NCBI GenBank assembly: GCA_002841765.1
Contig: PHAV01000006.1
Span: 77,975-141,974 of the forward strand
Origin: Deltaproteobacteria bacterium HGW-Deltaproteobacteria-4
Lineage (GTDB): Bacteria > Desulfobacterota > Desulfuromonadia > Desulfuromonadales > UBA2197
Length of the DNA: 64,000 nucleotides
Direction: 5' to 3'
In this document: positions 4,608-61,100 of the stretch, piece by piece
How the letters are laid out: every line of letters starts with the position of its first letter
How positions within the stretch are numbered: the stretch's first letter is position 1
Made by a program: the position numbers and the translations under genes
The notes under the pieces: model-generated
Seen by the model: only the letters and a program-made list of their open reading frames with translations
What the model was told of the DNA's origin: nothing
The model's database searches: none

Positions 4608-5624
4608 CTACCGCTCGGCAAACCTTTGGCAGGCCTCAACCACGCAAATAATGTCCTCGGCACGAAGATCGAGGTGGGTGACGAAGCGCAGAGCGTCGTA
4701 ACCGCCCACCAGAATTCCCTGCTCCCGCAAATATCCCTTCAGCGCCTCTTCCCGGTTGTTCTCCACCGTCACAAAGACCATATTGCTCTGCACTGTCGCC
4801 AAGTCGATGTGCAAGCCGGGGAGAGGAGCCAACCCCTCGGCGAGGATGCGGGCGAGGGCATGATCGTGGGCGAGGCGGGGAAGGTTATGCTCTAACGCAT
4901 AAAGACCGGCGGCAGCGAGAATGCCGGCCTGGCGCATGCCGCCGCCGACCATCTTGCGCCAGTGGCGCGCTTCACGGATCAAGTCGCGGCCGCCGCAAAG
5001 GAGGGCGCCGACCGGAGCGCCGAGCCCTTTGGAGAGGCAGATCGAAGCGGAATCGACGGTGGCGACCAGCTCGGCCGGGTCGATGCCCAAGGCCACAGCG
5101 GCATTGCCAAGACGGGCGCCGTCGAGGTGGAGAGCGAGACCCTGCTGTCGCGTCAAAGTCTGCATCTGCTGGTGATAGCGCAGCGACAGGACTTTGCCGG
5201 CATGGGTATTCTCCAGACAAAGGAGGCGGGTGCGGGCGTAGTGATCGTTTATCGGCTTGATGGCGCGGAGGATCCGTTCGGCACTAATCGTCCCGTCCGC
5301 CTCCATGGCAAGAGGTTGCGGCGAAATACCGCCAAGGACGGCGCCACCGCCGCCTTCGCAGCGGTAACAATGTGCCTGATCCCCGGCGAGATATTCGTCG
5401 CCACGCCGGCAGTGTGCCAATAGGGCCAAAAGATTCCCCTGCGTGCCGCTGCTGACGAAGAGGGCGCTTTCGCAGCCAAAGCGTTCGCAGGAAAAGGCTT
5501 CGAGGCGGTTGACGGTTGGATCTTCGCCGTAAACATCATCCCCGACCTCAGCGGCGATCATGGCGGCGCGCATTTCCGGCGAGGGACGGGTGACGGTGTC
5601 GCTGCGCAGGTCGATGTTTAGCAT
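4608..5624 (-). CDS. ltaE: Low-specificity L-threonine aldolase
   Basis: N-terminal DLRSDTVTRP...DDVYGEDPTVN signature of the threonine aldolase family; 338 aa. Confidence 0.85.
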   Translation of the reverse strand: MLNIDLRSDTVTRPSPEMRAAMIAAEVGDDVYGEDPTVNRLEAFSCERFGCESALFVSSGTQGNLLALLAHCRRGDEYLAGDQAHCYRCEGGGGAVLGGISPQPLAMEADGTISAERILRAIKPINDHYARTRLLCLENTHAGKVLSLRYHQQMQTLTRQQGLALHLDGARLGNAAVALGIDPAELVATVDSASICLSKGLGAPVGALLCGGRDLIREARHWRKMVGGGMRQAGILAAAGLYALEHNLPRLAHDHALARILAEGLAPLPGLHIDLATVQSNMVFVTVENNREEALKGYLREQGILVGGYDALRFVTHLDLRAEDIICVVEACQRFAER

Positions 5625-5656
5625 TTAAGTAACTCCCAAAATAACCTGAAAAAATA

Positions 5657-5763
5657 GTCGGACACGGATTAACACGGATGAAACGGATAAAAGACAGATA
5701 AATCAGGTTGAATCCCTTTTAAATCCGTCAAATCAGATTTTATCCGTGTGCTGAATGCTTTTG
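5657..5763. repeat. MITE-like ACGGAT-array repeat, copy 1 (shortened centre; one right-hand unit missing)
   Basis: GACACGGATTAACACGGATGAAACGGATAAAAGACAGATAAATCA ... AAATCCGTCAAATCAGATTTTATCCGTGTGCTGAATGC aligns with the copies at 10339 and 37729. Confidence 0.8.
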
Positions 5764-5877: not shown

Positions 5878-6978
5878 ATGGCCCGGAAAATTTTTGTCGC
5901 TGCCACCGGAAAAGATTGTGGAAAGACGACCACCAGCCTTTCACTTCTGCACCTCGCCAGTAAAAAATACGGCAAGGGCCGAGTCGGCTTCATGAAGCCC
6001 TTCGGGCCGAAACCCGCCGAGTACCGCGGGGTGATCGTCGATAAGGACGCCGCCCTCACCGCCGAGATCTTCGGTCTGGAGCAGGACCCCACCCTCCTTT
6101 CTCCGGTCGTTGTCGATCGCGCCACCACCCGTGCTTTTCTCGACGGAGAATTCACCGCCGCGTTCCTGCATGAGAAGATCCGCAGTGCCCTGGACGAACT
6201 CGAGCATCAATACGACTTCATTGTTATCGAGGGATCGGGACATGGTGGTGTCGGCTCGATCTTCGATCTCAGCAATGCCGAGGTGGCCAGGATCACCGAT
6301 GCTCCGGTGATGATCGTCACCGGCGGCGGCATCGGCAATGTCGTTGATGCCACCGCTCTCAACATCGCTCTTTTCCGCCAGGCAGGTGTCGAGGTCAAAC
6401 TGGTATTGACCAACAAGGTCGATCCGGCCAAACGGGAGCAGAGCCTGCACTACCTCACCCTCGCCTTTGCCCGCATCGGGGTGCCGGTGCGTATCGGCTT
6501 CGATTATGCACCGCTCCTTGCCAATCCGACCCTGAACCGGGTGGCAAAAGTCCTCGGGGAGACCTTGCGCGCCACCCCGCAGGAAGCGCAGCGGATTATC
6601 CTCCACCAGCAGCTCGGGGCCGCTTCGTCGCAACGGGTCATTGATCTTCTCGAAGATTCAACCCTGCTGATGGTCAACTCTTCTCGTGATGAACTCCTGG
6701 TAACGACTTCGTCCCTTTATCATCTCCCCGAATATAAAAGGAAAATTGCCGGACTCCTCATCGCCGGTCTCAACCCGATTTCGAAAATTACTCAGCAGAT
6801 CATCGATGATTCGGGGGTTCCTTATCTGCGGACGATGATCACCAATTCCGAGACCTTTACCCTCCTGTCCAACGACGTCTCGAAGACGACCGCCGATGAT
6901 AAAGAAAAGATTGAACTGATCTACAGTATGGCCGAGCGTCAGCTCGATTTCGACGCCATCGAAGCACTGGTGGTGTAG
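5878..6978 (+). CDS. BioD-like P-loop + DRTGG-domain protein (Pta N-terminal-domain-like)
   Basis: N-terminus IFVAATGKDCGKTTTSLSL (P-loop). Overall layout resembles the non-catalytic N-terminal half of long phosphotransacetylases. No PTA catalytic domain present. Confidence 0.6.
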   Translation: MARKIFVAATGKDCGKTTTSLSLLHLASKKYGKGRVGFMKPFGPKPAEYRGVIVDKDAALTAEIFGLEQDPTLLSPVVVDRATTRAFLDGEFTAAFLHEKIRSALDELEHQYDFIVIEGSGHGGVGSIFDLSNAEVARITDAPVMIVTGGGIGNVVDATALNIALFRQAGVEVKLVLTNKVDPAKREQSLHYLTLAFARIGVPVRIGFDYAPLLANPTLNRVAKVLGETLRATPQEAQRIILHQQLGAASSQRVIDLLEDSTLLMVNSSRDELLVTTSSLYHLPEYKRKIAGLLIAGLNPISKITQQIIDDSGVPYLRTMITNSETFTLLSNDVSKTTADDKEKIELIYSMAERQLDFDAIEALVV

Positions 6979-7026
6979 GGGCGACCCGGTGGGTCGGCCT
7001 GGGCGAGGCACCGCCTCGCCCCTACG
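6975..7026. repeat. REP-type hairpin (GTAGGGGCGACCC... family)
   Basis: GTAGGGGCGACCCGGTGGGTCGGCCTGGGCGAGGCACCGCCTCGCCCCTAC. Same core as at 13771, 13814, 31844 and 58160. Confidence 0.8.
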
Positions 7027-7035
7027 GTAATCGTG

Positions 7036-7830
7036 TTATTTTCCGTACTTTTCCAACACGCCCGGAATCTCTTTTTTGATCCGGGCGATGCGGGTGGCAT
7101 CGGATGGGTGTGTACTGAGGAATTCCGGGGGCGCTTGCCCCCCTTTTTGCGCCGCCATCCGTTCCCAGAAGCTGATGGCGGCATGCGGATCATAGCCGGC
7201 CATGGTCATGAAGACCAAGCCGAGCTGGTCGGCTTCATTCTCCTGCAATCGACCGTAAGGGAGGAGCGCTCCGTACTGGGTGCCAACGCCGTAGACCGAC
7301 ATCCAGAGCTGTCGAGTTGCTGCCGACTTCGTCGACATCGCGGTCGAGAGTGCGATCCCCCCCATCTGAGAAATCAGTCCTTGACTCATCCGCTCATTGC
7401 CATGTTCAGCAATAGCGTGGGCGATTTCGTGGGCAAGGACGACCGCCAGTCCGGCATCATCGCGGGTCACCGGCAGGATGCCGGTGTAGACGACCACCTT
7501 ACCGCCGGGCATGCACCAGGCATTGACCTGCGGATCTTCGACCAGGTTGAACTCCCATTGGTAATCAGCGAGATGGCTTTCCAGGCCGATGTCGGCAAAA
7601 TAGCGTTCGACCGCCTGCTGGATCTTCGTCCCGACCCGCTTGACCGTCGTTGTCTGCTCCGGGTTGGCGCTGACCTTGTTCTCCTTGATGAAGGTACCGT
7701 ATTCCTGGGCGCTCATGGCGAGCATGGAGGAACCGGGGATGAGGTTGAGCTGGGAACGGCCGGTAATCGGCACGGTTGAGCAGGCGGTAAGGAGGAGCAG
7801 CGTCAGAGTGAGAGTAATGAGTCGGCACAT
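7036..7830 (-). CDS. M48-family Zn-metallopeptidase lipoprotein
   Basis: HEIAHAIAEH zinc motif and lipobox LLLLTAC. Start moved to MCRLITL behind GAGGAG. Confidence 0.8.
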   Translation of the reverse strand: MCRLITLTLTLLLLTACSTVPITGRSQLNLIPGSSMLAMSAQEYGTFIKENKVSANPEQTTTVKRVGTKIQQAVERYFADIGLESHLADYQWEFNLVEDPQVNAWCMPGGKVVVYTGILPVTRDDAGLAVVLAHEIAHAIAEHGNERMSQGLISQMGGIALSTAMSTKSAATRQLWMSVYGVGTQYGALLPYGRLQENEADQLGLVFMTMAGYDPHAAISFWERMAAQKGGQAPPEFLSTHPSDATRIARIKKEIPGVLEKYGK

Positions 7831-7954
7831 AAAAATCTCCTCAAATGGATAGACTGGGTTAGCGTAGCGTAACCCGAAGTTTTTTGGCAAGTGTAGCATA
7901 TTTTTCTTTGACTTTTATCCTGCTGACAATTACAACTGCCGCACAATCGATGAC

Positions 7955-8125
7955 CAAGCGGTCTGGTGCCGTACCCTTGCCGGTACGGATAATAGGGAAG
8001 CGGGTGCAAATCCCGCGCTGTCCCGCAACTGTCAGGGTGGACTGATCTCGCATAATCCCACTGGGGAAACCTGGGAAGGGGCGAGTGAGGGTTGATCCCC
8101 AAGCCAGGAAACCTGCCAAGCCGAC
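7955..8125 (+). promoter_or_regulatory. Cobalamin (B12) riboswitch
   Basis: GGTGCC ... AATAGGGAAGCGGGTGCAAATCCCGCGCTGTCCCGCAACTGT ... CCCACTGGGGAAACCTGGGAAGG ... AGCCAGGAAACCTGCC matches the conserved cobalamin-riboswitch core and B12-box blocks. Confidence 0.85.
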
Positions 8126-8190
8126 GCTGTTTTGGAACCTCCGTGGAAAGAGGGGCCGGAAGCGGAGGTCTATGCGCACCCTCGATTTCG

Positions 8191-9703: not shown

Positions 9704-10324
9704 ATGACGACTTCCCTCCTCCTCACCTTCCTCGGCGCGTCGTTGGCGATCACGGTGGCACCGGGGCCGGACAACCTCTTTATCCTCACCCAGGGGATTG
9801 CGCGGGGGCGGCGGGCGGCGATCATCACCGCCCTCGGCATGTGCAGCGGCATCAGCATTCATACCCTCGCTGCGGCGCTGGGGATCTCGGCGATCTTCGC
9901 GACTTCGGCCCTCGCCTTTAGCGCCGTCAAGTACGCCGGCGCCGCTTATCTCCTCTATCTTGCTTGTCTGACCCTGCGCCACAGCGGCGCGGTACGACTC
10001 GGGCAGGCGGATGCGCGGCCGGCGCTGGACCTCTTCAAACGCGGCTTCATCATGAACGTCCTCAACCCCAAGGTTGCCCTCTTCTTCCTCGCCTTTCTCC
10101 CCCAGTTCGTCAATCCGCAGAACGGTTCCGTCCCGGCGCAGATGCTCCTCCTCGGTGGCCTCTTCATGGCGCAGGCGGTGGTCCTCTTCACCACCCTCGG
10201 CTACTTTGCCGGGAGCATTGGTGGCTATCTGCTGGCGCGGCCGCGACTGGCGAAATATTTGGATGGTTTGACGGCTGGGGTCTTTACGGCGCTGGCGTTA
10301 CGGCTGGCTTTTGCGGAGAGATGA
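9704..10324 (+). CDS. LysE/RhtB-family amino-acid exporter
   Basis: 206 aa, six hydrophobic segments, N-terminal ...APGPDNLFILTQG... motif typical of LysE/RhtB. Confidence 0.8.
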   Translation: MTTSLLLTFLGASLAITVAPGPDNLFILTQGIARGRRAAIITALGMCSGISIHTLAAALGISAIFATSALAFSAVKYAGAAYLLYLACLTLRHSGAVRLGQADARPALDLFKRGFIMNVLNPKVALFFLAFLPQFVNPQNGSVPAQMLLLGGLFMAQAVVLFTTLGYFAGSIGGYLLARPRLAKYLDGLTAGVFTALALRLAFAER

Positions 10325-10338
10325 GGATTACGAAAGGC

Positions 10339-10470
10339 GTTTCACACGGATTGTACGGATGAAACGGATAAAATCAGATTAATCAAGACAATAGACTCTG
10401 GACCGGTTCTTTATGTTAAATCCGTGAAAATCCGTCTAATCAGATTTTATCCGTGTGCAGAATGCATTTG
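10339..10470. repeat. MITE-like ACGGAT-array repeat, copy 2 (full length)
   Basis: GTTTCACACGGATTGTACGGATGAAACGGATAAAATCAGATTAATCA ... TTAAATCCGTGAAAATCCGTCTAATCAGATTTTATCCGTGTGCAGAATGC. Both ends begin CACACGGAT in inverted orientation. Confidence 0.8.
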
Positions 10471-10489: not shown

Positions 10490-11530
10490 CTACGTGGCAA
10501 TAAATTTCAACGCCTTCTTGTGCGCGCCGTGCAGGGATAATCCGCGCAAAACCTCCGCGTCAACCCACTCCGCCTTCCCTTCAGCGACCCGCCCCCACTC
10601 TTCCACCTGACCACTGAAAAGCCGCAGATCGACCTTGAAATGGCTGTAGGCATGAGCGACCCGCCCGGTTTCGCGGATGTCACCCACGCCGTAAGTGGCA
10701 GCGAGAACGGCGGCGATGGTCGTTGGATCGTCTCTGACGGCGACGACGCAGGTCGGGAATTCCCAGAGGCCGCCGAGCATCCCGCTCAAGGGACGGCGTT
10801 CGACCCGCCAGCGATTGTCGCGTTCCAGCAGCAGGGCGACCTGCAGCACCGTCGGCACCGCCTTGGTCTTCCGTCTCTCCGGCAACGCGTCTTGCCGTCC
10901 CTGCGCGAAGGCATGACAATGCGCAGCGAGGGGACAGAGGGAACAGGTCGGTTTGGTCGGGGTGCAGCAGGTGGCGCCGAGGTCCATGATCGCCTGAGCG
11001 TAGTCACCGGCGCGCTCAGGCGGAGTCACCGCCTCGGCCGATTGCCAGAGGATCTTCTCCGCCGCTGAGCTGCGCGGGTCGCCATCAAGGGCGAGGAGGC
11101 GCACCAGCACCCGGCGGACATTGCCGTCGAGGATGACGCCGCGCTCGCCAAAGGCGATGGCGCGGATCGCCCCGGCGGTGGAGCGGCCGACGCCGGGAAG
11201 ATCGGTCAGCTCTTCGAGGGACGAGGGGAAAGAACCACCATAGTCGTTCATCACCCGCTGCGCCGCCGCATGCAGGTTGCGGGCGCGGGAGTAGTAACCG
11301 AGGCCGGCCCAGGCGTCGATCACCGCCTCGATCGGCGCGCTGGCGAGGGTGGCGACAGCGGGGAAACGGGCGAGGAAGCGCTGGTAATAGGGGATGACCG
11401 CCGTCACCGTCGTCTGCTGGAGCATGATCTCGGAGAGCCAGATGCAATAGGGATCAGAGGTGTGGCGCCACGGCAGGTCACGGCCGACCTGGCCGTACCA
11501 GGCGAGGAGGAGCGGGGCGATGGAGATCAA
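10490..11530 (-). CDS. mutY: A/G-specific adenine DNA glycosylase
   Basis: [23 protein letters not shown] and [11 protein letters not shown] blocks, Fe-S loop [20 protein letters not shown] start overlaps the hisC stop by 4 nt. Confidence 0.9.
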
Positions 11531-13770: not shown

Positions 13771-13838
13771 GGGCGACCCACCGGGTCGCCCCTACGGAAA
13801 ATTGGTTTGGCGTGTAGGGGCGACCCGGTGGGTCGCCC
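13771..13838. repeat. Two inverted REP units (GGGCGACCCACCGGGTCGCCCCTAC / GTAGGGGCGACCCGGTGGGTCGCCC)
   Basis: Units at 13771-13795 and 13814-13838, between mqnE and mqnC. Confidence 0.85.
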
Positions 13839-13847
13839 GCTTGGGCA

Positions 13848-36458: not shown

Positions 36459-36509
36459 AGATATTCGGTTGACTTTTTCCGCGGCACCCTGCTAGCTTAA
36501 CATCACAAT

Positions 36510-36610
36510 TTAGCCCTAGGGGAGTGACTGACGTCACTGAGAGTTTCGCCGCCAGCGGGACGACCCTTTGAACCTGATCCGGCTCATACCGGCGTAGGGA
36601 AGCGGCGCAT
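36510..36610 (+). promoter_or_regulatory. TPP (thiamine pyrophosphate) riboswitch
   Basis: AGGGGAGTG...CTGAGAG...ACCCTTTGAACCTGATCCGGCTCATACCGGCGTAGGGAAG matches the THI-box core. Confidence 0.85.
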
Positions 36611-36629
36611 CCTCCCGAACGAATTATGA

Positions 36630-37512: not shown

Positions 37513-37710
37513 ATGCAACTACAAATTAACGGTAACACGCGCGATGTCAGCGCCGGTGACGTCGCCGGCCTGCTTCAGGAGTTGGGACTTGATGCCAGCC
37601 GTGTTGCCGTCGAATTGAATCGCGCCATTGTCCTGCAAGCCAACTTTGCCCAAACCCCGTTAGTCGCCGGAGACAGCATCGAAATCGTCCAGTTCGTCGG
37701 CGGCGGGTAA
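37513..37710 (+). CDS. thiS: Sulfur carrier protein ThiS
   Basis: 65 aa, MQLQINGN..., ending ...IEIVQFVGGG. Confidence 0.9.
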   Translation: MQLQINGNTRDVSAGDVAGLLQELGLDASRVAVELNRAIVLQANFAQTPLVAGDSIEIVQFVGGG

Positions 37711-37728
37711 TTCAACCTGAACAAGGCT

Positions 37729-37871
37729 GTTTCACACGGATTTACACGGATGAGACGGATAAAGGACAGATAAATCAAAATGGCGAGTATTGATCGTCAA
37801 AAAGGTGTGGGGTGAACGTTTAATCCGTAAAATCCGTACAAATCAGATTTTATCCGTGTGAAATGCTCTTG
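37729..37871. repeat. MITE-like ACGGAT-array repeat, copy 3 (longest), inside the thi operon
   Basis: GTTTCACACGGATTTACACGGATGAGACGGATAAAGGACAGATAAATCA ... TTTAATCCGTAAAATCCGTACAAATCAGATTTTATCCGTGTGAAATGC. Begins 19 nt after the thiS stop and ends 31 nt before the thiG ATG. Confidence 0.8.
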
Positions 37872-37901: not shown

Positions 37902-38672
37902 ATGTCCGATCTTATCATTGCCAATCGCACCTTCTCCTCCCGGCTCCTTATCGGCACCGGCAAGTTTTCCTCCAACGCCGCCATGGTCGCGGCCATGGAA
38001 GGCTCCGGATGCGAGATTGTCACTGTTGCCCTGCGCCGCGTCGATGTCGACGATCCGCAGGACAGCTTGTTGTCCCACATTGACCGGAATAAATATCTCC
38101 TCCTCCCCAATACCAGCGGTGCTCGTGATGCCGAAGAAGCAGTGCGTCTCGCCCGTCTTTCCCGGGCGGCCGGCTGTGAGCCGTGGATCAAACTCGAAGT
38201 CACCCCGGACCCTTATTATCTTCTTCCCGACCCGATCGAGACCTTGAAGGCGGCGGAGATTCTCGTCAAGGAAGGCTTCATCGTCCTCCCTTACATCAAC
38301 GCTGATCCGGTCCTCGCCAAGCGTCTGCAGGAAGTCGGTACGGCCACGGTCATGCCGCTAGGGGCGCCGATCGGCACGAATCGCGGCCTGCGCACCCGTG
38401 AGCAGATCGCCATCATCATCGAGCAGGCGATTGTTCCGGTCATCGTCGATGCCGGGCTCGGTGCCCCCTCTCATGCTGCTGAAGCGATGGAGCTCGGTGC
38501 CGATGCCGTTCTGGTTAACACCGCTCTGGCGGTGGCCCGCGATCCGGGGTTGATGGGGCAGGCTTTCCGCAAAGGGGTTGAAGCCGGACGCGAGGGCTAT
38601 CTGGCCGGCCTCGGCAGTCAGCGGCATCAGGCAGAAGCGTCCAGTCCTCTGACCGGTTTTTTGCGCAACTAA
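37902..38672 (+). CDS. thiG: Thiazole synthase
   Basis: [17 protein letters not shown] and VMPLGAPIG...AGLG blocks. Start moved to MSDLIIANR; the track extension starts inside the repeat. Confidence 0.9.
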
Positions 38673-38714
38673 AATCGGACCGATCTGACCGATCGGACCG
38701 ATCCGACTGATCGG

Positions 38715-46376: not shown

Positions 46377-47822
46377 ATGAACATCGAAGAACACGTTTAT
46401 GCTCGACCCGTACGGGAGTTCTGCCGCCGGGAGCTGATCCTTTGTTCCAGCGACGACTTTGTGCAGGACGCTGCGGCGCAGATGGCGCAACAGGGGATTT
46501 CCAGTGTGATTGTCTGCGCTGACGGAGAACCGGTGGGGATCTTCACGGATCGTGACCTGCGTAACAAGGTGGTGGCTGTCGGCGGGGATGCTGCCACGCT
46601 GCGGGCTGGAGCCATCATGAGCCACCCGCTTGTCGTCGTCAGGGACGAAGATTTCCTCTTCGAAGCCGTTTATCAGATGTCCCGGCAGGGAATCCATCGT
46701 GTCGGTGTGGTCGATACAGCGGGCCGCTTGTGCGGTATGCTCACCGAATCAGATTTGATCCGGGTGCAGACCAACTCGCCGCAGCGCCTGGTGCGGCAAC
46801 TCGCAAGTGCCGGGAGTATCGCCGACCTCAAGGTCATCCACCACAACATCAATGAGCTGACCGCTTCGCTGCATCAGGTGCGGGTGCCGACCCACGATCT
46901 GATGCGCTTGATCAGTCATTTGAATGATCAGATCGTGCAGCGTCTTATCGATCTCCTGCGCCAGGAGAAATTCTCGCAGCTACCTGCCGGCTTTGCTTTT
47001 GTCGCCCTCGGAAGCGAGGGGCGCGGCGAGCAGACCCTCAAAACTGATCAGGATAATGCCATGATCTATGCGGATGATCTCTCCGCCGCAGAGGTAGCGT
47101 GTCTTGCCAGTTTTTCCGAGGCGCTGATCGCTGCTTTGATAGAGATCGGTGTGCCGGAATGTCCCGGCGGCATCATGGCAACGAATCCCTTTTGGCGGCG
47201 GAGTTTGACGGCCTGGCGGGAGGAAATCGACCAGTGGATCAATCTCCCCGATAGCGAAAGTATTCTGCACTTCTGCATGTTCAGCGATCTGCGCACCCTG
47301 GCCGGTGACCCGGAACTGGAACAGGCGATCAAGGCGCATATTGCCGCGCGGACCCGGCAGGAAACGCTCTTTTTAACCCGATTGGCGGTTCAGGCCGGAA
47401 AGTTCGTTCCCCCTCTGGGTCTGTTCGGTGGTTTTAAGGTGGCAAAGGGGGGCGAGCACCGCGGCGAGATCGATCTCAAGACGGCCGGGCTCTTTGCGCT
47501 GACCGAAGGGATCAGGGTTCTGGGGCTTTCCATCGGATTGGTGGGGGGCGGGACGCCGGAGAAGATGGCGCAACTCGTTGCGCAAGGGGTGCTGAGTCAC
47601 GAACAATACCAGGACCTGCTGGCCAGCTTCAATCTGTTGTGTCAGTTACGGCTGCAGGGGCAGTTGGAGGCGATCACCATCGGGGGCGACCCTTCGAATT
47701 ACATCGCTCCTCGTGCCCTGAACCGTGTCGAGCAAGGACGGCTGCACGTCACCCTGGAAGTGGTGAAGTCCTTTGAGACCTTTATTAAAGCGCGCTTCCG
47801 CCTCGACCTTGTCCCGGGTTAA
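46377..47822 (+). CDS. CBS-pair + DUF294-type nucleotidyltransferase + DUF294_C protein (paralog 2)
   Basis: CBS repeats (...SSVIVCADGEPVGIFTDRDL..., ...HRVGVVDTAGRLCGMLTESDL...). NTase motif VALGSEGRGEQTLKTDQDNAMIY. Start at MNIEEHV behind GGGAGG. Confidence 0.8.
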   Translation: MNIEEHVYARPVREFCRRELILCSSDDFVQDAAAQMAQQGISSVIVCADGEPVGIFTDRDLRNKVVAVGGDAATLRAGAIMSHPLVVVRDEDFLFEAVYQMSRQGIHRVGVVDTAGRLCGMLTESDLIRVQTNSPQRLVRQLASAGSIADLKVIHHNINELTASLHQVRVPTHDLMRLISHLNDQIVQRLIDLLRQEKFSQLPAGFAFVALGSEGRGEQTLKTDQDNAMIYADDLSAAEVACLASFSEALIAALIEIGVPECPGGIMATNPFWRRSLTAWREEIDQWINLPDSESILHFCMFSDLRTLAGDPELEQAIKAHIAARTRQETLFLTRLAVQAGKFVPPLGLFGGFKVAKGGEHRGEIDLKTAGLFALTEGIRVLGLSIGLVGGGTPEKMAQLVAQGVLSHEQYQDLLASFNLLCQLRLQGQLEAITIGGDPSNYIAPRALNRVEQGRLHVTLEVVKSFETFIKARFRLDLVPG

Positions 47823-58159: not shown

Positions 58160-58187
58160 GTAGGGGCACGGCGCGCCGTGCCCCTAC
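58160..58187. repeat. REP-type hairpin (GTAGGGGCACGGCGCGCCGTGCCCCTAC) between convergent genes
   Basis: Perfect palindrome. The asmA-family stop codon lies inside it. Confidence 0.8.
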
Positions 58188-61100
58188 CGGAACAGCTCCG
58201 TCACGTCGTCAACGATCTTGCCCGGCAGGCCGAAAGTCCGTTTGAAGATGCCGACGGCCATATCCGAGAGGGACGAAAAGGGAATCGCCTCGACATCAGG
58301 ATCCTGACTGCTGCCGGTAACGTGGAAGTTGGCAACGACGAAGGCTTTCTTCTCCCCGGTTAATATCCATCCCGCCAGCGGAATGTTGGAGAGGATCTTG
58401 TCGACGGTCTGCAACGGTTTGACGCCGATAAGGAAGTCGAGACGATCCTTGACGAGATCCGCCTTGCCGACAAAAGCCATGTCAAAGGCGGGGCTGCTAA
58501 CTGCGAGATCTTCGCTGTGCATCACACCATCGGTGAAGGTCAGGTTCCCTTTGATCCGGTCGAAGAGCAGGCCGTCCTTGTCGACGTCGGGGAAGTTGAA
58601 GGTGAGGAGCTGCCCGACATTAAAGAGGGCAAGGGCGCGACTGATACTGGTAAATCCCCGCATCAGGCCTTTATTGAGGCGAAGGTTGACGTTGCCGTCA
58701 CAGGTCGGCAGAAAGCGGCCGATCTCTCCTTGTAAGGTAAAGGTGCTCGACAGAGTGCCGGAGATGCTCCCGCGCTTCCCTAAAAGTTGTCTTTGTACCT
58801 GCGCCGCGTCGATCTTCTCCGCTTGTCCGGAGACTTTCAAGATCGGATGTTCTTCCCGCAGCGGACCGGTGCTAATGGCGACGTTGGCATGGCCAGCGCC
58901 GATCTCCAGACGCAGCAGCTCAATCTGCAGGGCTCCGTTGCGCAGAGCGATCGTGCCGGCGGCATTTGCAAATCTGACCCCGAAAAGATCGCCGTTTGCA
59001 ATCGTCACCTGAATATCGGCGCTCAGGGGGTGGGCCGTGTCGGCGGTTGGCGTTGAGCGCGGCGCCGGTTTTTCACCCTTGTGCCAAAGAGCGATGATGC
59101 CGGCGATATTCCCCTGACTGGCAACGATGTCGAGAATCAGGTTGGCCGGCGTGTAGGTGAGACGGCCATTGATCAGGGCTTTGGTTTCATTGTCGATCTC
59201 GGCGCTGATCTGTTCAAAGAGAATCCCGCTGCCGGAGATGACCAGGCGGCCCTCGATAGAGGAAAAGATCTTTTGCGGCGAGCTGAAGACAAGATCGGCC
59301 GCCCGGGTTTTCGCAAGATCAAGGTCGAGAGTGAGCTGGAACGCCGGCAGCCATTTCAGGTCAGCGCTGGCCCGTACCGGCGAACTGCCGAGGAGGCCGG
59401 TGATCGCCGGGAATTCGATCCCCTCGCGATGGACGAGCATCCGTCCGCTGGCGTCGTGCAGATTGGCAACGCTGGCCCAGAGGTGCATGCCGAGCTTCCG
59501 AAACTCCCCACTCCCCTGCAAACTCCTCAGCCCCTTGCGGTCTCCGCTTAAATCGAGACGCAGATCGACTTCGCCGCTCCCCCGCAGCTTCTGCTGGACC
59601 GGCAGGAAGGGGGGGAGCTTTTCGAGGAGGAGATGACTAATGTCACAAGCGAGGGTGTAGCCGCCGCTGCTGTCGAGGGCGAAGTGCCCGTTGGCGCGGG
59701 CTTCAGCAAAAGGGAGGAGGAGGCGGGCATGGCTGAGTTCGAGCCCGGAAGACTGCACTGCGCCGAGGATGAGGAGTTCACCAACCTCTCCGGCCCGTTT
59801 CAGCGGGATGTCGTTAAAGTGGACGGCCGCGCTCTCGAAGCGCGACTGCAGATCAAGGAGGAGTCGGGAGGGCGTCCCACTGATCTTGCCGGAAAAGGAG
59901 ATGGGGCCACTGGCCTGCAGCTTCTTTTGCCAAGCCGCGGCGAGGAGGGGGATCAGAGCTTCCGCCCGCGCCGTACTGGTGATCTGCAGGTTAAAGCTCG
60001 CTTCCCCCTGGCGCGGGAAAGCGATATGGCCTGCCCCTGCACTCTTCCCGCCGAGGAGGGTGGCTTTAGCGCTTTTGATTGCCAGTTCGCCATCTGTCCA
60101 GACTCCGTCTCCCGCCGCATTCTCCACCAGACCGATCCCCTTGAGGTTAAAACGTCCATCCCGGAGCAGAAGAAGAGCGGTGTCGAGGTGGAGTCCTTCC
60201 GTACTCGACCAGCGCAGCTGGATCTTTTCCATGCCGACGCTGCCGCTCACTCCCTGGCCGCGCAGGGCCGTTGCCAGTTGGGGCAGAGTGTGCTCGGGGA
60301 TCCATGGGCCGAGGAGATTCAGGGGGGTCGTCGGGACAGCCAGGGTCGCAATCAGGGGTGTTGTCGCGGTTGGCAGTAGCACTTCGCCGTGCAGGGACAG
60401 GGCATCGACGCGAAGGAGAAGGTTGCGGATCGTGTCGGTTGCGGCGCTTTGCCAGATGCCGCCAAGGACGATTTCACCGGCATGCAGCGGGGCAGCGTAC
60501 AGGGTCGGCAGGTTCAACGCCGCGTCCGGACTTTCGGCGCGGAGTTCAAAAGCAAGGCCGCTGGCCGGAGCGCCCTGCGCGTGTAAGCTCAATTTGGCCA
60601 ATCCGGCGAACCGGAGCTTTTTTTCGCCACTTTCGCGGGCAAGGGGCAGCTGCGCCAGATCGAGCTCTTTCATCCCGAGGGTGAGATCAATGCGAGTTTC
60701 CTGCCAGGGAGCATCCGCATTCGCTGCTTCAATCATTCCGGATAATTGCCAGGCAGTTCGCAACTCTCCGGAGCGGATCTCTCCACTCGCCGTGACTGCC
60801 ACAGGCGTCAGGAAAGCGATGTTGTCCAGTTGCAGATTGATTTTGTCAAGATCGTAACGCTGCGCGCCGTTCATGACCGTCACGCGGCTGTTGCGTAGCA
60901 GCAAGGTGCTGATATTGGTACGGCGTAACAGGTCGAGGAAGGTTTTCAGCCGTTCTGGCGCCGTCTTCTCCGCTTCCCTGGTCGTTGTCCCGACCGGGAC
61001 GTTGATACGGAGTTGTGCCCCTTCGAGGAGGATGCTTGAGAAACTCAACTGTCGCTGCAAAAGCGGGGTGATATGGAGCCGCAGCAGCAGATGGTCGACA

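Follow-up and report, generated by a model that had tools for sequence, protein, structure and literature searches.

What are the three short, gene-less inverted-repeat elements in this stretch of a Desulfuromonadales genome, and what could have dispersed them? The stretch (referred to here as the window; 64,000 nucleotides, C19:77975-141974) belongs to the source genome G000 of Deltaproteobacteria bacterium HGW-Deltaproteobacteria-4 (3.02 Mb, 30 contigs, 55.7% GC, Desulfuromonadales). A sequence-only reading of the window had described a family resembling MITEs (miniature inverted-repeat transposable elements), with inverted arrays of ACGGAT units at both ends. Comparison with other genomes links such arrays to genes of a small nuclease family (GxxExxY; PDDEXK_3, PF13366). 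On these sequence comparisons, we lean toward regarding the window copies as gene-less members of a GxxExxY-nuclease-associated foldback DNA family, whose arrays would be nuclease sites and whose spread we infer. In the following text, G001 to G003 are congeners of G000, other G numbers are genomes of the order, and L numbers are other matching contigs (from metagenome-assembled genomes [MAGs] or metagenomes).

Structure of the window copies

Sequence reading and alignment confirmed three copies at the places where the sequence-only reading had put them, with slightly wider ends. An information-content profile of 16 genomic copies showed that conservation runs 11 nt further to the left and 12 nt further to the right (AAAGGCnTTT ... 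CAAAATGCyTTT) and then stops sharply. Once this outer inverted repeat (AAAGGCnTTT...AAATGCyTTT) is counted in, the copies are 113, 137, and 149 bp long. The copies and the arms of copy 2 are as follows (window coordinates; bit scores from the genome profile search).

5651..5763, plus strand: copy 1, 113 bp, 88.6 bits, with one ATCCGT unit fewer in the right arm; in the divergent region that ltaE (minus strand, 4608-5624) shares with a 366-aa gene (5878-6978)
10333..10469, plus strand: copy 2 (the copy under which the family had been noted), 137 bp, 110.5 bits; between the convergent genes of a LysE/RhtB-family exporter (9704-10324) and mutY (10490-11530, minus strand)
10343..10380, plus strand: left arm of copy 2, CACACGGAT-TGT-ACGGAT-GAA-ACGGAT-AAAA-TCAGAT, phased units at 9- to 10-nt spacing
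10416..10457, plus strand: right arm of copy 2, TTAAATCCGT GAAAATCCGT CTAATCAGAT TTTATCCGTGTG, four phased decamers with the terminal 19-mer ATCAGATTTTATCCGTGTG
37722..37870, plus strand: copy 3, 149 bp, 95.3 bits; inside the thi operon in sense orientation, between thiS (37513-37710) and thiG (37902-38672)

The alignment also bore out the shared inverted arms of phased ACGGAT units. Every left arm consists of CACACGGAT, two further ACGGAT units 9 to 10 nt apart, and a degenerate fourth unit (ACAGAT or TCAGAT), while every right arm is an inverted array with ATCAGATTTTATCCGTGTG at its end, and the center between the arms varies. Copy 1 has indeed lost one unit, namely in its right arm. The pattern ACGGAT-N3-5-ACGGAT-N3-5-ACGGAT had three matches in the window versus none in 100 dinucleotide shuffles, and the right-end 17-mer CAGATTTTATCCGTGTG occurred exactly three times (expectation at up to three mismatches, 0.07). 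A fourth, weak match at 46750 was rejected as a chance occurrence inside a coding region.

The gene contexts given earlier for copies 2 and 3 (lysE family/mutY and thiS/thiG) were correct. Copy 1 had been placed after ltaE; because ltaE is on the minus strand, the copy is upstream of it, in the divergent promoter region. The unit spacing of 9 to 10 nt is likewise as described, but it is slightly less than a helical turn, so that the proposed binding on the same face of the DNA can be approximate only.

The family in the source genome

A profile built from 14 copies containing TTTATCCGTGTG was searched against G000, yielding 27 loci in mixed orientation. All 27 are intergenic, which extends to the whole genome what had been reported for the window copies. 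Sixteen strong copies, including the three in the window, form subfamily A; four more symmetric copies (C20:3496, 4374, and 5492 and C5:46633) form subfamily B; and three copies with CGGAT/CTGAT units (C4:51875, C19:194892, and C27:179479) form subfamily C. The remaining loci are truncated copies. In one of these (C11:41482-41556), the left arm comprises five tandem ACACGGATG units, suggesting that the unit number changes by slippage, and the right arm is cut down to GGTGTGCAAAATGCCTTTT.

Relative to their neighbors, the 16 strong copies are located in the sense orientation within operons (6 copies), in the antisense orientation (3 copies), in divergent regions (3 copies), or in convergent regions (4 copies). 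Every same-orientation triple array of G000 falls within the 27 loci, and a genome-wide scan of the arrays revealed no solitary end beside a larger gene block in G000.

Turnover at orthologous sites among congeners

The joined flanks of all 27 loci were compared by BLAST with the three same-genus genomes, and selected sites were aligned. In G001 (a MAG; approximately 92% identical), nearly every site was filled. In G002 and G003 (approximately 85% identical), the match was continuous across the junction at 12 or more sites, and the sites lacking the ACGGAT element include all three of the window. More specifically, the site of copy 1 has no element in G002. The site of copy 2 contains the element in G001, is without it in G003, and has a hairpin of the GTAG type of repetitive extragenic palindromic (REP) sequence instead in G002. 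The thiS-thiG site of copy 3 contains the element in G001 and an unrelated GC-rich hairpin in both G002 and G003. Other hairpin repeats occupy several further element sites in the congeners, suggesting that these intergenic positions are slots in which one kind of foldback repeat gives way to another.

The repeat family is real, and it turns over at orthologous intergenic sites without target-site duplications. The description as a nonautonomous, dispersed inverted-repeat element thus stands, given the 27 intergenic loci and their presence or absence at orthologous sites. The possibility, raised in the sequence-only reading, that the three loci are the only copies and are syntenic in all relatives does not hold because of the same two observations.

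In G002 and G003, the sequences around the empty sites had diverged too far for the junctions to be placed exactly by alignment, and the single G001-specific copy sits within a larger indel. Two candidate events were discarded: an apparent tandem copy at G001:C149, which looks like an assembly artifact, and a 3.3-kb insert in G002 at the C3:25878 site, which contains toxin-antitoxin-like genes and no element. An 8.2-kb segment (G000:C16:33484-41698) that is absent from G001 directly adjoins the element at C16:41699. It was rejected as an element-linked segment, as its content is ordinary accessory genes (a GGDEF/EAL protein, a glycine-betaine-type ABC transporter, and a porin-like gene).

Association with GxxExxY nuclease genes

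Elements abutting a GxxExxY gene were first seen in G027, in L104, and on contig C20 of G000. Four PF13366 genes are present in G000. One of them (C20:5123-5512, outside the window) belongs to the ACGGAT-linked clade, and an element's left arm encloses its last codons and stop codon (AAAAAGCGTTTCACACGGATTTAA). The remaining three are located among arrays with CACGAA, CACGGAG/CACAGAG, and ACGC-type units, and the leader AAAGGCATTTTG is common to the CACGAA and ACGGAT families of G000. The statement that no transposase accompanies the elements is true of the window, but gene-bearing relatives, including the one on C20, hold the gene of a GxxExxY PD-(D/E)XK nuclease.

The three ACGGAT-adjacent proteins (from three organisms) are 56 to 64% identical to one another and 33 to 40% identical to the G000 paralogs. 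Four homologs with 77 to 87% identity, encoded on unrelated metagenome contigs, have ACGGAT-type elements on both sides, often two or three in tandem. Inverted arrays, as judged by eye, also flank all of 20 homologs that have 49 to 72% identity and come from 18 genomes of the order; the unit of these arrays drifts among ACGGAT, GCGGAT, GCTGAT, GCAGAT, ACAGAT, and CACGAT. A strict arm detector (at least three CnGA[T/A] units at 8- to 12-nt spacing) detected arms in 23 of 26 clade contexts, which come from at least 20 genomes and metagenomes. In at least three contexts (G029b, G029c, and G034), the gene is located between a left and a right arm, which is the layout expected of a gene-bearing parent. 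Protein identity was 59.9% within a unit type versus 54.9% between unit types, with the types labeled by eye, and 4 of 5,000 permutations were as extreme.

The C20 protein (approximately 130 aa) matches PF13366 at 2e-39, and a database entry (P0001) is 99% identical to it. Residues E27, D66, and E76 do not vary, and K78 hardly does, corresponding to the GxxExxY and D...ExK motifs. The nearest folds to its predicted structure (pLDDT, 79) are those of Cas4 SSO0001 and lambda exonuclease; a sequence search for a solved structure of the nuclease returned none. PDDEXK_3 was entered as "unknown" in a 2012 superfamily survey, and mentions of GxxExxY found in the literature were made without any tie to repeats. 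We did not find a nuclease-linked inverted-array family in print; a literature search on the motif strings returned primers alone, and the motif did not appear in the text of the supplements of Geobacter and Pelobacter genome papers.

The nuclease gene is associated with the arrays, and its catalytic residues are conserved. Sequence evidence makes the nuclease a candidate partner of the repeat, and recognition of the arrays by the nuclease is a reasonable inference. The idea that the nuclease spreads the repeat is speculative.

Several points weigh against a nuclease-associated family. The single clade gene of G000 is distant from 26 of the 27 copies, and no PF13366 match was detected in the assembly of G001, which has approximately 25 arrays. 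Genes lying within tandem repeats may be lost from MAG assemblies, so that the absence of a gene is soft evidence. Eight genomes had both arrays and the gene, a weak co-occurrence given an expectation of 4.6 (odds ratio, 2.4; one-sided P = 0.06). The 19-mer copies of Ignavibacteria and Bacteroidota MAGs are solo, i.e., not beside the PF13366 genes of these MAGs. The nearest-neighbor protein has the same unit label in 15 of 25 cases, a loose mapping, and plain linkage of the gene with neighboring repeats would give the same unit-clade signal. A comparison of G000 with G001 also yielded no recent insertion that would define a junction. Finally, a lone 130-aa PD-(D/E)XK nuclease cannot by itself join DNA.

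Distribution and arrangement of the arrays

Triple arrays are patchily distributed in the order. Of 201 genomes, 25 contained them (16 of 69 genera), and the counts were highest in G000 (28), G001 (25), and G184 (9); a reversed control pattern gave one match. Other MAGs of Desulfuromonadales and Geobacteraceae also contain the 19-mer ATCAGATTTTATCCGTGTG. It further occurs in Ignavibacteria and Bacteroidota MAGs, at 7 to 12 copies per genome when up to two mismatches are allowed (controls, 0). The carriers in these two groups are L002, L003, L010, L012, L015, L029, L033 (a Melioribacter-labeled MAG), L027, and L023. Here, the right-arm array of four phased decamers occurs alone, in the loop of a different hairpin repeat with a 19-bp stem (GAGGTTGTCTCAAAAGTAA / TTACTTTTGAGACAACCTC), and the loop array ends in an identical ATCAGATTTTATCCGTGTG.

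Metagenome contigs (L109, L111, L112, L119, L132, L135, and others) contain many copies of a composite of approximately 215 bp, in which the hairpin lies between two other conserved modules with TTAG at the borders. The layout, with slashes for the borders, is TTAG/TCTCTTACGACTTGAGTC...GAGCAAAAC - ACGGAT hairpin - AAAATGTCTTTT..CCTGTTTGGTTCCGGCTTGTCCGGCTTAG/G, and the flanks are unrelated between copies. Subfamily C of G000 is of this composite type, and G003 has an internally deleted form at the C19:194892 site. The border TTAG and small subterminal hairpins recall IS200/IS605-like ends; this candidate was rejected, with the left module essentially absent from the order.

On L104 (Ga0299906_10136729, 1363-1828), four tandem ACGGAT elements of approximately 120 bp precede the GxxExxY gene. 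They follow the first 40 or so codons of a Y1-transposase-like open reading frame (ORF; GQIYHVLNRGNGRANVF...), and this Y1 gene appears to be interrupted. Some metagenome contigs contain right halves alone. The varied metagenome arrangements and the lone right halves suggest that conservation as a module applies to the phased array more than to the entire palindrome. On L007 (226-3437; G001:C116), a right half is joined to a left half (…ATCCGTGTGCTGATTTTAAAAGCATTTTTCACACGGAT…) and a lone right half follows 3 kb on; these halves bracket a nucleotidyltransferase-like gene, a transglutaminase-like gene, and a HicAB pair, and G000 lacks the halves as well as part of the region.

Alternative explanations

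The arrays could be the sites of a nuclease system comparable to Ssn and its NTS repeats, acting on host or incoming single-stranded DNA (ssDNA) and kept for transformation control, repair, or defense. We consider this unlikely. Ssn is a GIY-YIG enzyme with a proven site-specific activity on ssDNA and a role in transformation; experiments have shown that ssDNA is cut beside the cognate dispersed hairpins that flank the small nuclease genes (Chenal et al. 2025, Nat Commun 16:2388, PMC11893778). The gene-plus-repeat layout described here matches: a small nuclease gene is accompanied by dispersed hairpin repeats, either on one side or on both, different homologs go with different repeat sequences, and many phyla are involved. 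Furthermore, folding was better on the plus strand in 14 of 16 copies. In contrast to Ssn, the candidate nuclease here has the PD-(D/E)XK fold. The repeats also differ, being inverted multiunit arrays and far fewer (27 copies versus hundreds of NTS). G001 retains repeats with the gene undetected, and mismatches between the arms showed no strand bias (G:U versus A:C, 85 versus 75).

The idea of a protein-binding-site cassette, which the sequence-only reading had offered, is plausible. In the form of binding sites for a host nucleoid-associated or global regulator (IHF/HU-like), it has a rather small chance of being correct in our view. A precedent exists in Geobacter metallireducens, in which classes 1 to 3 of "predicted global regulator binding sites" were read as IHF/HU sites, given as unique to that species, and, in the passages describing them, presented with no nuclease link (Aklujkar et al. 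2009, BMC Microbiol 9:109, PMC2700814). As described there, those sites are likewise intergenic and paired on opposite strands at a variable distance, with three to five tandem repeats of 7 to 9 nt, and some are paired inverted sites of three tandem repeats. According to the published legend, to which the comparison is confined, class 2 (TCTCCGTS[Y]) is close to the ATCCGTS of the window copies; the CCGTS core is common, and the first bases differ. Phased A-tracts and the IHF-like AATCAGATTTTAT in the conserved right arm, together with the retention of the right half alone across phyla, are also consistent with regulator sites. On the other hand, the neighboring genes are functionally unrelated and the orientation is mixed. 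Orthologous congener sites are without copies or have other repeats instead, and a regulon would not turn over in this way. The unit sequence also shifts from genome to genome along with the adjacent nuclease gene.

The label "MITE-like" holds insofar as the element is a nonautonomous dispersed repeat, but not for the mechanism, as neither target-site duplications nor a DDE parent was found. In the classical sense, the copies would be internally deleted forms of a DDE insertion sequence or transposon with multisite ends (in the style of Tn7, Mu, or IS21), moved in trans; this is improbable. Terminal inverted repeats with subterminal units, the small size, the absence of an ORF, dispersed copies, and insertion polymorphism are all features of such an element. 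Bacterial MITEs (Correia/CREE of Neisseria, ERIC, and Chunjie of Geobacter uraniireducens) are 100- to 160-bp gene-less repeats with terminal inverted repeats, occur in intergenic regions and operons, are tolerated in transcripts, and show presence/absence polymorphism. Unlike the ACGGAT elements, MITEs have target-site duplications and a DDE parent.

The search for target-site duplications that the sequence-only reading had proposed yielded flank direct repeats no longer than those of shuffled pairings: the best repeat averaged 4.1 nt versus 4.4 nt, and two repeats of 7 nt or longer were observed versus 1.9 expected. A genome-wide search for a transposase with matching ends detected none among the DDE candidates of G000, which has no DDE_Tnp_1 (PF01609) match and three rve genes, none of them near ACGGAT arrays. 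Long-range paired arrays were not detected in G000, where the same-orientation triple arrays are confined to the 27 short elements, and plasmid, phage, and IMG/VR collections contained no match to the element.

An RNA-level role, with the transcribed long hairpin serving as a terminator, an mRNA stabilizer, an RNase III target, or a small RNA, also strikes us as very doubtful. RNA folding, another of the checks proposed earlier, gave a long imperfect hairpin with z-scores of -1.5 to -4.0. A U-run follows the hairpin in both orientations (AAAGGC...GCCUUU), and six copies are in the sense orientation inside operons. In the same 14 of 16 copies, the plus-strand fold had the advantage, by 4.8 kcal/mol on average; the copies are kin, so that the P value overstates the effect. 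Against this role, three copies are antisense, three are in divergent promoter regions, and no consensus promoter or terminator was predicted. No Rfam match reached its gathering threshold (the best below it was NsiR8, 24.7 bits versus a cutoff of 61), and there was no excess of G:U-type (85) over A:C-type (75) mismatches between the arms. TwoAYGGAY (RF01731) was rejected because it was not listed by cmscan even at E ≤ 10. Likenesses of the element to CsrA sites, DnaA boxes, IHF or CRP sites, and parS were dropped as partial matches without support.

Movement as REPs or REP doublets (REPINs) by a REP-associated tyrosine transposase (RAYT; Y1/HUH) is hardly credible: the elements are extragenic palindromes without target-site duplications, G000 has one RAYT-like Y1_Tnp gene, and the plus strand of the element is the G-rich strand in 19 versus 8 cases (a weak GC-skew bias), but an unrelated inverted repeat of 25 nt surrounds that sole gene, its probable natural partner is a separate and much larger GTAG-headed family (GTAGGGGCG..., approximately 140 heads), the GTAG head is missing from the ACGGAT elements, the four tandem elements of L104 appear to interrupt a Y1-like ORF, and no RAYT gene was seen near the arrays in G027, G142, G057, or G001.

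Proposed mechanism and comparison with known systems

In each element, a short outer inverted repeat (AAAGGCnTTT / AAAnGCCTTT) encloses a pair of arrays that face inward, each with three or four phased 9- to 10-bp units, and a variable center; the unit core is CnGAT across the family and ACGGAT in the window copies. In many genomes, relatives that are full-length or adjacent carry the approximately 130-aa nuclease gene between the arms or beside them, with the stop codon inside a left arm. If the window copies are gene-less members of this nuclease-associated family, the following model may apply. The arrays would be the recognition sites of the nuclease, with several protomers on the phased units, and the nuclease might cut at or near the arms, on duplex DNA or on a folded single strand. 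Starting from the cut, host recombination or repair could then copy the element into further intergenic sites, which often hold a hairpin already. Alternatively, as in Ssn/NTS, cutting would mark and process ssDNA.

Taken to its full extent, this model would describe a minimal selfish element of an undescribed type, or an Ssn-like nuclease system of a second fold, in which the nuclease recognizes its own arm arrays and drives gene-less copies; we put this forward tentatively, as an unlikely reading. The solo window copies are probably passive passengers. The host is likely to be affected only insofar as transcripts gain a long imperfect hairpin, which the thi operon tolerates.

The organization resembles that of REP/REPIN-RAYT systems in several respects. 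Both comprise short extragenic palindromes in tens of copies, without target-site duplications and with turnover between related strains. In both, the enzyme presumed to act in trans is encoded by a single-copy gene among cognate repeats, and the repeat family varies by enzyme clade. However, the gene here encodes a PD-(D/E)XK (PF13366) nuclease of approximately 130 aa, whereas RAYT is a Y1 transposase, and the arms consist of three or four phased 9- to 10-nt units instead of a GTAG-headed hairpin, with a separate true REP family present in G000.

Integron attC sites (e.g., the VCRs of Vibrio) are also imperfect palindromes (60 to 140 bp) with conserved ends and a variable center, and the elements follow small ORFs one by one in the C20 cluster (3.5 to 5.6 kb) and in metagenome arrays, as attC sites do. 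Unlike attC sites, the consensus ends revealed no RYYYAAC/GTTRRRY cores on inspection, none of the nine PF00589 matches in G000 is near an element cluster, and most ACGGAT copies are solitary and dispersed.

Other repeats and features

Separate from the ACGGAT family is a classical REP-like family, GTAGGGGCG(hairpin)CGCCCCTAC. It often forms inverted doublets and has approximately 140 GTAGGGGC heads in G000; the single RAYT-like gene is probably its partner. Its locations, and those of other features outside the ACGGAT family, are as follows.

C4:27192-28187: the only Y1_Tnp gene of G000 (RAYT-like, 331 aa), with the 25-nt inverted repeat ATGGGGGACGCAGTTGATT.../...AATCAACTGCGTCCCCCAT
Window approximately 6975-7040, 13788-13840, 31864, 35848, 43709, and 58160-58190: REP-like copies
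C19:84949, 91762/91788, 109838, 113822, 121683, and 136134: the same REP-like copies in contig coordinates
Window 7947-8134: cobalamin riboswitch, 123.5 bits
Window 36508-36617: thiamine pyrophosphate (TPP) riboswitch, 71.1 bits, at the head of the thi operon that holds copy 3
Window 38678-38701 (C19:116652-116675): tandem array GGACCGAT-CTGACCGAT-CGGACCGAT-CCGACTGAT, right behind the thiG stop codon
G000:C23:51603-51627: three phased TGTGGATA(A) units (TTGTGGATATTGTGGATAACTGTGGAAAAC), DnaA-box-like

The array behind thiG looks like the "four heptanucleotide repeat" elements (GGACCGG) catalogued in G. metallireducens. The units on C23 may mark a replication origin.

Significance

The present analysis adds congeneric presence/absence data for this lineage and a link to a gene; the published 2009 catalogue of similar architecture made no gene link in its account of the sites. 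If the link is physical linkage alone, the elements stay ordinary extragenic repeats. For annotation, recognition of the foldback arrays accounts for many of the "orphan" repeats between genes of Desulfuromonadales and other phyla, and it warns that such arrays break short-read assemblies.

PF13366 comprises a great many small, functionally uncharacterized nucleases in bacteria, archaea, and viruses (a single homolog search returned more than 7,900 relatives), and a dispersed repeat family tied to it constitutes a concrete, testable hypothesis. If the nuclease is specific, by sequence or by structure, for programmable repeat units, this family might join Ssn as a source of site-specific nucleases.

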